A DNA stretch of 64,000 nt from Lytechinus pictus (Eukaryota): positions 9,178,001 to 9,242,000 of the forward strand of contig NC_087251.1 in NCBI RefSeq assembly GCF_037042905.1, in the 5' to 3' direction. The number at the start of each line of letters is the position of its first letter. The stretch's first letter is position 1. The position numbers were made by a program, and so were the translations under genes. Shown piece by piece: positions 20,949 through 29,143 of the stretch. Below the pieces are notes generated by a model, which did no database searches, was not told the origin of the DNA, and was given only the letters and a program-made list of their open reading frames with translations.

Positions 20949-22841
20949 TAACCCAGGGAGCTCCCGCCCGCGCAGGGGCTTACCGTGTGTTTGACCATAG
21001 TCACCGGACTAACTATTAGGGTGATTTATGGTCTAATTATTTCTCCAAATGAATTGTGAAAACAGAAAGTATACAATTACCACGATTATATGGATGAAGG
21101 TCTAACGAGTGGCAGTTTCCTGAGATCTGGGCACAGACTGGAACCTCAAAAAAACAAAAAGTTCTCTCCTCTACCCCAGTCTCGATCGGCCATTTTGTTA
21201 CGATTTTTAACAAAAATGGCCGATCGAAACGGGGGTATAAGGAGAGAACTTTTCGTTTTTTTGAGGTTCCAGTCTGTGCTAGCCTGGAGGCGTCTGGGGA
21301 GTGAAAATCATAGTACTAACGTACGCTCACTCCCCACTGACGCCTGGCTTCCTTGAGCATTGGTCTACACACACACTTGATTTTCCCACGGTCAGAGTGG
21401 ACCTAAATTATAACTTAGGCCCTTAGGGTTAGGATTTTTACCCCAAACTACTGTACATGGGCCAAAACTAAGTTTTCCCCCCAAATTTACTATATTTTTA
21501 TTTATATTCCTTCATAGATATTATAAATATGAAAAATAATTAAGAGCACGGAGCGTTGACTTACCAAGTCTGTTTTGGTCGCCATCTTGATCTCTTTGTT
21601 ATCGATACCTAGATACCACACTTGTGTATAGCTGCCAATTTAAATTTAAAAAATACTTGCATCGGCCGATAAATATTTTTGATCGCAAAATACTTGCCTC
21701 GCTTGATAAATATCATGAAGCATGGTGCACAGTGGCAAATTGTATGGAACGGATACCGGTGCGTTCAACGCTAGCGGGCGTGTACATTTTGCTTATTACT
21801 ATTAGTATTAGTATACATGACGTCATCCAGCCACTGCCGAGAGCCAAAATATGAATGAAAATGTAGTAAGCATACGCAGTGCAAGCCTTCCATTGCCCCA
21901 CACAGTATTCCATACACCAAAACAAGTGTGCAATTCTCTAATCTATCACCTCGTACCAAAATCAACTTAGAATTTCACTTTCCTATATTTTGGTCGCCAT
22001 CTTGATCTCTTTGTTATCGATACCTAGATACCACACGTGTGTATAGCTGCCAATTTAAATTTAAAAAATACTTTCATCGGCCGATAAATATTTTTGATCG
22101 CAAAATACCTGCCTCGCTTGATAAATATCATGAAGCAATTTTAAAATATTTATCAACCGAGACAAGTATTTTACGTTCAAAAATATTTATCGGCCGATGC
22201 AAGTATTTTTAAATTTTAATTGGCAGCTATACACACGTGTGGTATCTAGGTATCGATAACAAAGATATCAAGATGGCGACCAAAACAGACTTGGTAAGTC
22301 AACGCTCGTGCTCTTAATTATTTTTCATATTTATAATATCTATGAAGGAATATAAATAAAAATATAGTAAATTTGGGGGGAAAACTTAGTTTTGGCCCAT
22401 GTACAGTAGTTTGGGGTAAAAATCCTAACCCTAAGTTATAATTTAGGTCCACTCTGACTGGGAAAATCAAGTGTGTGTGTAGACCAATGCTCAAGGAAGC
22501 CAGGCGTCAGTGGGTAGTGAGCGTACGTTAGTACTATGATTTTCACTCCCCAGACGCCTCCAGGCTAGTCTGTGCCCAGATCTCAGGAAACTGCCACTCG
22601 TTAGACCTTCATCCACAAAATCGTGGTAATTGTATACTTTCTGTTGTCACAATTCATTTGGAGAAATATTTAGACCATAAATCACCCTAGTCCGGTGACT
22701 ATGGTCAAATACACGGTAAGCTCTCTCCTACCCCAGTCTCGATCGGCCATTTTGTTACAATTCATAACAAAAATGGCCGATCAAATACACGGTAAGCTCC
22801 TGGGCTTCCGCCCGCACAGCGGGCGAGATTTCCCTGGGTTA
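20949..22841. mobile_element. Foldback / Mutator-like palindromic element with 9-bp TSD
   Basis: Ends TAACCCAGGGA...TCCCTGGGTTA. TSD GTACCACTC at 20940-48 and 22842-50. Roughly 700-bp near-identical inverted arms. Confidence 0.88.
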
Positions 22842-26500: not shown

Positions 26501-27139
26501 TTTTAAAATATATGTAATGCTTCGGCAATTCAACTGCAATTTCAGTCATTTCGCGATGGATATTGCCGTGTTTTTTTTGTGGTTCCTGACTTTGCTACTT
26601 AATGAAATTTCATAATTTTTGTTCAGTCATAAAGAAGAATGTCTATGCTTTATATTGATTATAATATTAATGTGACGCAAGTGTGATTTCTACGTGAAAA
26701 TATGCTTTGTTTATTCACATATATTTCTTGAAAAAAAAAAATTCTAAGCTAAATATCGGTTACCAAAATACGTTAAATGTGCACTTTTTTTCACTGTTCA
26801 GTAAATTCAAACTTTTATCTATATAACAAGACCAATATTAAGAGCAATAAACAATTCTAAGAGCAAAAAACGCTGATTGGAAAGATTGTCTCCAATGGGC
26901 TGCTGTCAGCTCAGCTGCTCACTGCTCATTGTGTGACGTCACTCAGCTGGAGCTCGCAAGAGGACCGGTGGAAGGCAGAAATATGGCATGAAAATAAATC
27001 ATTTTTGAGAGCTGATTTCTGCAAACTCTGATCACTATTTTGAAAAGTGAAGTTATATATCTGATTAGTATACTTCCCCTTTACAATGATGACCACATAA
27101 AGTCATTATAAAATACTTTTGATTCTTTGGATGTATACT
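23529..27139. mobile_element. Kolobok-like 3.6-kb non-autonomous element
   Basis: 17-bp TIR AGTATACATCCAAAGAA. TTAA TSD at 23525-28 and 27140-43. Confidence 0.8.
24761..24909. mobile_element. Small palindromic MITE
   Basis: TIR TACCTCAAGTGATGTT, loopless central palindrome CACCTACCCGGGTAGGTG, flanking GAGCACC duplication. Confidence 0.7.
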
Positions 27140-27492
27140 TTAAGCCAATTTTTGAAAATAGTAAATAGTAAAAATTTTCATGCGGCGGCCAAAATAGATG
27201 CGCGCGAGGACGATCAACTATCTTTTTTTACTTGGCCTAATGAAAAATAAATTGCAACTGTATGGAAATTAGTAATATTGGTCACAAAAGTGATATTTTA
27301 ATGATTTTTTAAAGTGTGTGCTCTGTACAACATTGGCATACCATACTCCATAGTCCTACCTGCTGTAGATTCCCCACAGGCAGGATGGTTGCAGTGAACA
27401 AGTGTCTAGTACATGTATATATTACATGTACATCAATCAATATTGGGTATGATTATCATTTGGCCCTACTTTTTAGGATAACAGATACAGAG

Positions 27493-27658
27493 ATGGCAAG
27501 GGGAAGAAGAGGCAGAGGCCGTGGTGGGAAAGCCAAAGTTGATGAGAATGTGGGTGTGGCTGATGAAGCTGGCAATGCAGAACAAGAACAGGTTGAAGAC
27601 ATTGTCATTGACGAGTTCGAAGTTGACGAAAATGGTGAAGATGATGATGGTAAAATCG
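27493..27658 (+). CDS. PRPF39: PRPF39 coding exon 1 (RG-rich then acidic N-terminus)
   Basis: Acceptor AG at 27475-76, ATG at 27493 (MARGRRGRGRGGK...), donor G|GTATGT. An in-frame alternative donor follows 27649. Phase 1 fits the next exon. Confidence 0.75.
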
Positions 27659-27718
27659 GTATGTATAGAACATGTGGAATTCTTTAACTACATGCCCATA
27701 ATTTTTATTAGTGTGGTG

Positions 27719-28383
27719 CACAGTGGCAAATTGTATGGAACGGATAGCGGTGCGTTCAACGCTAGCGGGCGTGTACATTTTGCTTATTAGTATACATGAC
27801 GTCATCCAGCCACTGCCGAGAGCCAATTTATGAATGAAAATGTAGTAAGCATACGCAGTGCAAGCCTTCCATTGCCCCACACAGTATTCCATGCACCAAA
27901 ACAAGTGTGCAATTCTCTAATCTATCACCTCGTACCAAAATCGACCTAGAATTTCACTTTCCTATATTTTGTATGAATTATGAAAGGTATTTTCGGAGGA
28001 TCTATTTTCTCACCGATACCGCACAGGTAAGCGAATTGGCATCGTGTTCGTTGGAGTTTGTAGAGTCTATCGCAACGTGTACAAAGTCAATTGATTTTCG
28101 GGTTTTGGAGCGTCGCGTGAATATGCATGAAATTGCCGAGTCTCGATAATTTTCGATTGATACTGGAGCTGGAGCGATCCGATCACGAACCAAGACCATT
28201 TCCCCGCGTAGACAATGTGACCGGTTATCGCTATCGATACTTTCGCACGCAGTTCGAAGGAATTATTTTGGCGACCACGTAGTCATGACGTGATCTGCCC
28301 GATTGGCCAATCAGCGGTCTCCGATTCGCTGAGCCGAGACGGTCTATCCGTTGTACACAGTCTATGGACAATTTGCCACTGTG
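27719..28383. mobile_element. Non-autonomous Transib/RAG-like element with RSS-like ends
   Basis: 16-bp TIR CACAGTGGCAAATTGT. 5-bp TSD TGGTG at 27714-18 and 28384-88. Motif SAACGGATAG lies 12 bp (left) and 23 bp (right) after the heptamer. Confidence 0.85.
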
Positions 28384-28712
28384 TGGTGCTCAATCTTTAA
28401 TCTTTTCTTGCTTTCATCCTGTAAGCTGATTGTAATTGATTTTAGCATAATCTATTGCTCTTGCTGTCTTGCATGTTTCAATGATTATTAAAAGTAGGAT
28501 TTATTACGACATGTATATAAATGTAAATGATATAAATAAATGTATATAAATATTAATTTGAATTTATTGAAATTAAATAAGTATTTCATACTTAAATGTA
28601 TTTAAATGTAATTCTCATTGAAACATAACAGAATGCAATGTGACTTCAGATGAGCTGTTGATTGATAATCAGTAATGTTACGCCCTTTTAACATGTATCC
28701 TGTTTACTGCAG

Positions 28713-29143
28713 ATGATTCTATACTAGAAGAAGAGGAAGTAGAAGGAGGAGCGATAGATGACGGAGCTGACAAATCTGAAGCAAAGGAAGCCAAAGGTGA
28801 TGATGTCCAACCGTCAGAAGAAATGCCAATGGAAATACAAGAAGCCACAAAGGAATCCGAAGTAGAAGAGAAAACAGAGGATAAACCAGCAGAACAGGCA
28901 TCTGAAAAAGCAGCAGAAAAGCCTGCTGAAGAGGAAAGGGAAGCTATCCAAGAAGAGGCTATGGAAGACACGAAAGAGAAATCATCTGCAAGTGAAGAAT
29001 CTAAGAAGGAAGGCGGATCAAGGAAGAGGAAGAAGAAGGAACGTACCAGACCATATGAGCTTGAGAAATACTGGAAGGCAGTGAAGACGAATCCTGCAGA
29101 CTTCACTGGTTGGACGTACCTGCTGCAATATGTGGAGCAAGAG
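28713..29143 (+). CDS. PRPF39: PRPF39 coding exon 2
   Basis: Acidic region, then [27 protein letters not shown], matching the start of the PRPF39 HAT repeats. AG/GT junctions. Confidence 0.93.

Follow-up and report, generated by a model that had tools for sequence, protein, structure and literature searches.

Anatomy of the insert and its host intron

The DNA analysed here is a 64,000-nucleotide stretch of the genome of the sea urchin Lytechinus pictus (contig NC_087251.1, positions 9,178,001 to 9,242,000 of the forward strand), which is called the window below. At 27714..28388 it contains a short insert whose ends are like the signals used in V(D)J recombination (recombination signal sequences, RSSs), and we interpret the insert as a non-autonomous RAG-like (RAGL) transposon. 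By direct reading, it runs as TGGTG / CACAGTG + 12 nt + GAACGGATAG ... CTATCCGTTG + 23 nt + CACTGTG / TGGTG. The heptamers, the 12- and 23-bp spacers, the shared distal motif and the TGGTG flanks, all of which had been described in an initial annotation of the window, were exact to the base.

The element itself (27719..28383, + strand) is 665 bp long, has no long open frame, and carries a 12-type end on the left and a 23-type end on the right. The left target-site duplication TGGTG, 5 bp at 27714..27718, is identical to the right one at 28384..28388. In the left end, the heptamer CACAGTG (27719..27725, + strand) is adjoined by a TR2-like block, GCAAATTGT (27726..27734, + strand), of which the first 6 bases are GCAAAT and which completes a 16-bp inverted repeat. 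The 12-bp spacer from the heptamer to the distal decamer, GCAAATTGTATG, occupies 27726..27737, and the decamer GAACGGATAG follows at 27738..27747, both on the + strand. The signals of the right end are on the - strand: the heptamer CACAGTG (CACTGTG on the + strand) at 28377..28383, the 23-bp spacer GCAAATTGTCCATAGACTGTGTA at 28354..28376, with the TR2-like block as its first 9 bases and CCATAGACTGTGTA, read inward, as the other 14, and the distal decamer at 28344..28353, which reads CAACGGATAG inward and CTATCCGTTG on the + strand. A perfect inverted repeat, CACAGTGGCAAATTGT, is formed by the outermost 16 bp on either side, and past these 16 bp the ends diverge solely by 11 extra bases on the right, ahead of the common decamer. 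The distal element, SAACNNATAG, occurs once per end in this copy and is unlike the A/T-rich nonamer ACAAAAACC.

The location of the element in a host gene was read from the contigs of runs X1 and X5, two studies with the same organism label and with 0 other letters on the flanks. In each run one contig connects 27657 with 28712 and leaves out the 1054 bases between them, which have GT..AG ends, and therefore the element is housed in an intron (27658..28711, + strand) of a gene on the + strand.

A family of miniature copies with 5-bp duplications

Related ends were searched for in the 811-Mb, 368-contig assembly, in which the window lies on contig C7, and the reversed pattern served as the control. 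The 16-mer end with at most 1 mismatch gave 107 + 113 = 220 genome matches, as compared with 6 + 5 = 11 for the control. The 28-nt 12-type end with at most 2 mismatches gave 65 matches against 0, and the 16-mer followed by N{1,30} and SAACNNATAG gave 101 against 0. Comparison of both ends with the genome, which the initial annotation had proposed as a check, shows that the family is real.

Pairing of the ends was done in 73 loci (L001-L060 and L071-L083) and yielded 30 rows, which were reduced to 24 distinct elements. The 6 rows dropped comprised 4 spurious combinations (the outer pairs of L004, L043 and L071, and L023), a pair whose partner was doubtful (L053), and L006, where the insertion of L005 is seen a second time. 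The 5-bp flanks were identical in 17 of the 24 distinct pairs, differed by one mismatch in 1, and showed no duplication in 6. The 17 perfect duplications are all different (TGGTG, CTGTA, CTTCA, AAATA, CTATG, CAAAC, CCTTC, CCAAG, TCCCA, CACAC, CAGTG, ACAAC, TTCCC, CTCGA, CCTCG, GAAAG and TCCTG). The earlier claim of 5-bp target-site duplications is borne out by these counts, and the TGGTG flank in the window is a true target-site duplication. TGGTG was also considered as a part of the element, as a partial copy at 21723 has it too; this was ruled out by the flanks of the other copies, which differ.

Nineteen copies were aligned, and their substitutions relative to the majority were 1.6–12.4% overall and 1.7% for the window copy, from which about 30 bp are deleted internally in comparison with the copies of 685–706 bp. 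Two longer paired copies, of 2,081 and 2,965 bp, contain no RAG-like frame. L002 and L076 (about 2% from the majority), L034 and L052 are fairly young paired copies without duplications, and two of them have altered 23-spacers. The duplications in those young copies may have been lost by failed excision and re-joining of the flanks, or by ordinary rearrangement.

The region 27300-28800 of the window was also compared with runs X9 and X10, which carry a second organism label. Their contigs match the unique flanks at roughly 90–95% identity and cover 27444-27710 and 28556-28800, and none of those listed bridges the element. Over the body of the miniature the summed depth, which is not a copy number, was 100 to 10,000 times that of the flanks. 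This suggests that the miniature family is repeated in a related species too.

A full-length transposon with the same ends

The Pfam RAG1 profile (PF12940) matched the genome at 17 places, and open frames of 612–624 aa were found in three of them, on contigs C182, C233 and C4. A scan for CAC...GTG ends in 20 kb of C182 returned one pair with identical 5-bp flanks, at C182:10626-24199. The element so delimited (L087, L084, L086) is 13,574 bp long with the duplication CGGAG, and is organized as target-site duplication, terminal inverted repeat (TIR), RAG1L, RAG2L, TIR and target-site duplication. It is a longer RAG-coding copy with the same ends, for which a search had been advised in the initial annotation. 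The identity suggested there, a non-autonomous partner of a RAG/Transib-like transposase, was right as to the superfamily, but the partner found is a RAG1L-RAG2L transposon and not a Transib without RAG2.

The 12-type end of the miniature corresponds to the 5' end of this parent, and the 23-type end to its 3' end. The parent 5' end consists of CACAATG, the 12-bp spacer GCAAATCACGTA and the decamer GAACGTATAG, where the window copy has CACAGTG, GCAAATTGTATG and GAACGGATAG. The parent 3' end consists of CACAGTG, the 23-bp spacer GCAAATGCCCCATTGACTGTGTA and the decamer CAACAGATAG, where the window copy has CACAGTG, GCAAATTGTCCATAGACTGTGTA and CAACGGATAG. GCAAAT after the heptamer is common to both ends of both elements. 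Between parent and miniature, the proximal 13 bp are identical at 12/13 and 13/13 positions and the decamers at 9/10 and 9/10, as compared with 2/6 for the rest of the 12-bp spacer. No indels were found in the first 29 bp of the 5' end or the first 40 bp of the 3' end. The 5' sides are collinear, with indels, for about 130 bp, and the 3' sides are 87.5% identical over the first 40 bp. In the 13.6-kb parent each end has a single occurrence of the decamer pattern, and the rest of the element has none.

Empty site and second copy of the parent

The 1-kb flanks of the C182 element are each 100% identical to the chromosome contig C10, on which they overlap by exactly 5 bp. Direct reading of C10 gave ...GTAAGCGGAGCGCGG... 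/ ...GTAAGCGGAGCGCGGTC..., with a single CGGAG and no element (C10:2975887-2975891, L091). C292 showed the same 5-bp overlap of the flanks and is also an empty site. Excision by enzymes of the hairpin-forming class is expected to leave a footprint, and the single intact target on C10 would have the look of a site that was never occupied. The parent is polymorphic in the assembly, filled on C182 and empty on C10, and the empty-site check that had been recommended earlier has succeeded for the parent. On C292 there is in addition an insertion of about 14.5 kb (C292:1364-15892), located about 665 bp upstream in the left flank, with a 4-bp overlap of the flanking matches.

A second copy lies at C233:12609-26181 (L062, L088, L089). 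Over 4,659 bp its identity with the C182 copy is 100%, and it has other flanks: the 5' flank maps to C20 with 98% identity, and the 3' flank is a high-copy repeat. An empty site was not established for this copy on C20, where the sequence upstream of the site differs from the 3' flank on C233.

Proteins encoded by the parent

The RAG1L of C182 matched PF12940 with an E-value of 8e-75 and is identical to an 828-aa protein model (P0001), which at 100% identity bears the NCBI name 'V(D)J recombination-activating protein 1-like [Lytechinus pictus]'. Its score was 534 bits with amphioxus RAG1L (6b40_A) and 248 bits with mouse RAG1. When aligned with the mouse protein, it keeps the counterparts of D600, E662, D708 and E962, and has Met at the position of R848 and Val at that of E649. 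The four acidic residues are the catalytic ones. The C-terminus contains a CX2CX3GHX4C knuckle, CSKCQKLGHSAIHC. Upstream of the region aligned to the mouse nonamer-binding domain (NBD), where the protein reads ...DGAKRVWSAKTS..., no GRPR/K motif was seen by eye. In the initial annotation the distal motif was said to differ from the canonical nonamer, and so it does from ACAAAAACC; the different binding specificity proposed along with it is consistent with this reading of the protein.

RAG2L of C182 is a convergent kelch + PHD gene, on the opposite strand to RAG1L. Its three open exons match residues 1 to about 107, 108-188 and 193-478 of the 478-aa sea star RAG2L with 51–52% identity, and the last exon matches residues 158-361 of amphioxus RAG2L and terminates in a PHD finger. 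Searches of PDB sequences with exons A and B alone gave no match, and the comparison with sea star settled their identity. From the reading frames, RAG1L and RAG2L of C182 look apparently intact. The parent is, as judged from bit scores and motifs, a RAGL-B element, its RAG1L being closer to amphioxus RAG1L than to mouse RAG1, having the C-terminal knuckle and showing no GRPR/K.

Another full-length RAG1L was found at C4:15674907-15676589 (L085; P0006). It has 804 aa and is 51% identical to the C182 protein, and no end of the miniature or parent type was present in the 10 kb examined around it. Many of the 14 further PF12940 matches are RAG1-like fragments with stops. The C4 RAG1L and these fragments are possibly domesticated or fossil copies.

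Spacer lengths in the family

Spacer lengths were tallied for 100 listed ends of the 101 existing. The spacer was 12 bp in 39 ends and 23 bp in 55, and the other 6 were insertion variants of 19, 20, 29, 30, 30 and 37 bp. Conservation of the spacing across the family, which the initial annotation had asked to be checked, is thus seen in 94 of these 100 ends, and also in the parent. All of the 19 aligned copies have an intact 12-bp spacer and 17 of them an intact 23-bp spacer, and the two altered 23-spacers, in L052 (-2) and L076 (+6), are both in copies without duplications. All 18 pairs with a duplication combine a 12-type and a 23-type end, and the single 12/12 pair, L073, has no duplication. 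These results indicate that the 12/23 spacing and the distal motif common to both ends characterize the family as a whole, and its autonomous partner too. That the duplicated pairs are all 12/23 is compatible with a pairing rule and is no demonstration of one. All copies descend from one 12/23 ancestor, and therefore the absence of 12/12 and 23/23 pairs is weak evidence for such a rule.

Passenger copies and other repeats in the window

The raw number of 484 candidates overstates the copy number. Most whole-element matches (L007-L030) are without the first 28 bp and have one common right flank. They originated from one insertion into another transposon, with the duplication AAATA that is intact in L005 and L006, followed by deletion of the 12-type end. 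The resulting composite is about 1.08 kb long and has inverted ends of its own, CAACCAAAAAATTAC..., with 8-bp duplications in 7 of 7 inspected copies (e.g. L008:1225-2307); the copies are 97.6–99.8% alike. We take the composite to be hAT-like from the length of these duplications. Of the 55 23-type ends listed, at least 37 have a passenger variant of the decamer, CAACGAATAG, and the composite supplies the majority of the genome's 23-type ends. Those 23-type ends were spread as passengers by a different mechanism and not by transposition of their own, and the raw candidate number was inflated by this passenger spread of a single old insertion.

A partial copy of the element in the window, TGGTG plus the first ~265 bp with the same ATG spacer variant, lies at 21723..21992 (+ strand), between the two copies of a 150-bp direct repeat of another, hairpin element. 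It is probably a templated copy, apparently made by repair, of the sequence from 27714 onward, 6 kb away, and not a product of transposition. The long hairpin element extends over 21457-22400, and its arms (21457-21652 and 22206-22400) are 97–100% complementary. It holds a 415-bp tandem-like unit composed of 150 bp of its own arm (21573-21722, repeated at 21988-22137 with 98% identity), TGGTG and about 265 bp of the miniature. The sequence at 26719-27145 is also a repeat, young and very abundant: of 2,406 candidates 40 were scored, and at least 39 of these are copies with 97–100% identity over about 425 bp. At 27300-27401 the summed depth is very high, suggesting yet another repeat.

Comparison with known systems

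ProtoRAG of amphioxus was reportedly described by Huang in 2016. ProtoRAG/BbRAGL-B (PMC8289069, 6b40) shares with the elements described here the 5-bp duplications, the CAC starts and the convergent RAG1L and RAG2L, as well as a conserved block adjacent to the heptamer, a C-terminal zinc knuckle, by which the block would here be read, and two-part asymmetric ends, of which the distal element and the spacer length matter in ProtoRAG. The score of 534 bits to 6b40_A and the Met at the equivalent of mouse R848 also count among the similarities. For ProtoRAG to be active, its two-part ends have to be asymmetric and its spacer of a particular length (Tao 2019, PMC8289069). Its spacers are 27/31, a 4-bp offset, whereas those found here are 12/23, an 11-bp offset with RSS lengths. 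In addition, RAG2L has a PHD finger here, in contrast to amphioxus RAG2L, which lacks one (PMC7204232), and there is a sizeable miniature family, unlike in ProtoRAG.

PflRAGL-A of Ptychodera flava (PMC10462144/PMC10629977) has the same arrangement of heptamer, TR2, asymmetric spacer and distal element, with 5-bp duplications and polymorphic insertions; contact between CTT* and TR2 has been reported (PMC10462144). The length asymmetry is 10 bp in PflRAGL-A and 11 bp here, each about one helical turn. The distal element of PflRAGL-A is A/T-rich and nonamer-like and its NBD has GRPR/K, whereas here the distal element is SAACNNATAG, no GRPR/K was seen and the protein is B-like. The RSSs of V(D)J recombination have the same heptamer, CACAGTG, and the same spacers of 12 and 23 bp. 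They differ in the nonamer, ACAAAAACC, and in lying beside gene segments, whereas here the first 6–9 spacer bases are conserved (TR2) and the signals are the two ends of one mobile element with a target duplication. Among insect elements, Transib5 of Drosophila and Transib2 and N1-N3 of Anopheles have 5-bp duplications, a CAC heptamer and 12/23 (+/-1) spacers (PMC8355894). Transibs have no RAG2-like protein, unlike the parent here, and at the distal position they have an A-rich element that resembles the nonamer. Fossil RAGL copies of Patiria miniata and other deuterostomes include 5'TIR-3'TIR forms without RAG genes, some with 5-bp duplications; these were reported to be fossilised, and no nonamer-equivalent oligomer was found in them, whereas the ends described here are two-part and the parent is intact-looking and polymorphic (10.1101/100735; PMC7204232). 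AanRAGL of the alga Aureococcus, a very distant host, also has conserved elements of 13 bp and 10 bp with unequal spacers (Tao 2022, PMC9435367). Its spacers after the 13-bp block are 4/13 as compared with 6/17 here, and its gene order differs.

The novelty of the window element is smaller than it first seemed, as 12/23-like asymmetry, two-part ends and non-autonomous RAGL elements are already in print (PMC8355894, PMC10462144/PMC10629977, PMC9435367, PMC8289069, PMC7204232). For echinoderms, according to papers up to 2023, no transposition-competent RAGL is known (PMC10629977), no ends around sea urchin RAGL genes were identified (PMC9885083), and the RAGL copies of Lytechinus variegatus and Eucidaris are described without ends (10.1101/100735). 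Our literature search, which did not extend to subscription papers, found neither an intact or polymorphic echinoderm RAGL nor ends around sea urchin RAGL genes, and no paper on Lytechinus pictus, RAG1 and transposon. Among the papers listed as having the end string CACAGTGGCAAA in the main text, where sequences printed in figures are not searchable, none is on RAGL, and both CACAGTGGCAAA and CACAATGGCAAA are absent from the supplements of PMC7204232, PMC9435367 and PMC10629977. What is apparently new is a complete, seemingly competent and polymorphic RAGL in a sea urchin with the exact 12/23 geometry.

Discussion

The element in the window is very probably a gene-less deletion derivative, comparable to a miniature inverted-repeat transposable element, of a RAGL-B transposon, which would be moved in trans by RAG1L/RAG2L of full-length elements; this is argued from the ends, the duplications and the coding parent. 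In the proposed mechanism, the RAG1L/RAG2L transposase of full-length elements such as the C182 copy would move it by cut-and-paste in trans, and an integration staggered by 5 bp would give the TGGTG duplication. The proximal 13-bp block (CACAGTG + GCAAAT) would be read by the RAG1L core and the C-terminal zinc knuckle, by analogy with amphioxus BbRAGL. The distal decamer SAACNNATAG, located 12 bp from the heptamer in the 5' end and 23 bp in the 3' end, may be read by a dimeric domain of the NBD* type. The 11-bp offset corresponds to one helical turn and would leave both decamers facing the same side of the DNA, at different distances. The synaptic complex is thus pictured as asymmetric and would prefer the 5'/3' (12/23) pair.

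Several observations weigh against this interpretation. The TR2 block of the miniature, GCAAATTGT, differs from those of the parent, GCAAATCAC and GCAAATGCC, and therefore the present C182 enzyme may not have moved the window copy. Duplications are lacking in 6 of the 24 pairs, and the divergence of the copies from the majority (1.6–12.4%) means that the family spread over a long period. No empty site was found for any miniature copy, and the search with the window copy returned, besides the window itself, only another repeat among 40 scored candidates. The flanks of the C233 copy are mismatched (CCTCG and CGCAA), and its 3' end has a 1-bp deletion; this 3' junction could be the result of rearrangement, a neighbouring insertion or misassembly. 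As to the spacing, the 12/23 layout common to the miniature copies is inherited from one ancestor and is not replicated evidence, and its conservation is seen in just two lineages, that of the miniature copies and that of a single parent. Furthermore, RAGL-B recognition has been argued to depend mainly on the terminal ~15–17 bp and the C-terminal tail, and to be comparatively little affected by asymmetry of the TIRs (Martin et al. 2020, PMC7204232).

The last points lead to an account in which the element is the same RAGL-derived miniature and its 12/23 layout is an inherited accident, the transposase needing the heptamer and TR2 only and the decamer and its spacing being neutral. We regard this as a real possibility, though short of an even one. 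It accords with the prediction of Martin et al. for invertebrate RAGL and with the RAG1L found here, in which the tail motif is present and no GRPR/K was seen. After insertion the decamer also decays like neutral DNA, with CpG changed to TG or CA in several copies. In addition, the 23-bp spacer beyond GCAAAT is 13/17 identical between parent and miniature, and limited divergence could explain a part of the conservation. However, the 5' decamer is kept at 9/10 positions as compared with 2/6 in the preceding 6 bases, and of the bases that follow it about half are the same, with indels among them. The restriction of the decamer to one occurrence per end in 13.6 kb also argues against neutrality, and experiments with ProtoRAG show that its distal element and the length of its spacer are of importance (PMC8289069). 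Both copies with an altered 23-spacer, two cases, are without duplications.

A second alternative is a non-autonomous Transib which, as in insects, would be moved by a RAG1-like transposase that has no RAG2 partner. The 5-bp duplications and the CAC heptamer would fit, 12/23-like ends are present in a number of Transibs (PMC8355894, after Kapitonov and Jurka 2005), and most of the 17 PF12940 matches are fragmentary. This alternative is very improbable, as no elements other than the RAG1L-RAG2L copies on C182 and C233 were found to share this end architecture, the homology of the ends to them reaches well past the signals, and the C182 RAG1L is far nearer to amphioxus RAG1L than to any other solved structure. 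A chance inverted repeat with a chance 5-bp match of the flanks, for which the 16-mer with at most 3 mismatches in the window gave little contrast (3 matches against a shuffle mean of 0.87, with 3 of 100 shuffles reaching 3), is refuted by the genome counts (220 vs 11, 65 vs 0 and 101 vs 0) and by 17 independent copies with duplications of their own.

Beyond the origin of the window element as a derivative of a RAGL-B transposon, the data can be taken one step further: the RAGL-B of L. pictus may be currently or very recently active, with an enzyme that lacks GRPR/K and yet enforces 12/23 pairing through a non-A/T decamer. From what the sequences offer, we consider this stronger claim rather unlikely as it stands, and put it forward tentatively. 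The origin and timing of the 12/23 rule are among the questions still to be answered on how V(D)J recombination arose, and in this sea urchin the exact RSS spacer lengths occur alongside a protein of the B type, with a distal motif that is non-A/T. If the claim is true, a 12/23 geometry offset by one helical turn would be older than both the RSS nonamer and the RAGL-A lineage, and dozens of natural substrates for testing the pairing would be at hand in the miniature family. A cognate pair of enzyme and substrate from a model animal makes it possible to ask whether the spacer asymmetry is read without a nonamer-binding domain of the GRPR type. The finding also bears on the question of whether all sea urchin RAG-like genes are domesticated.

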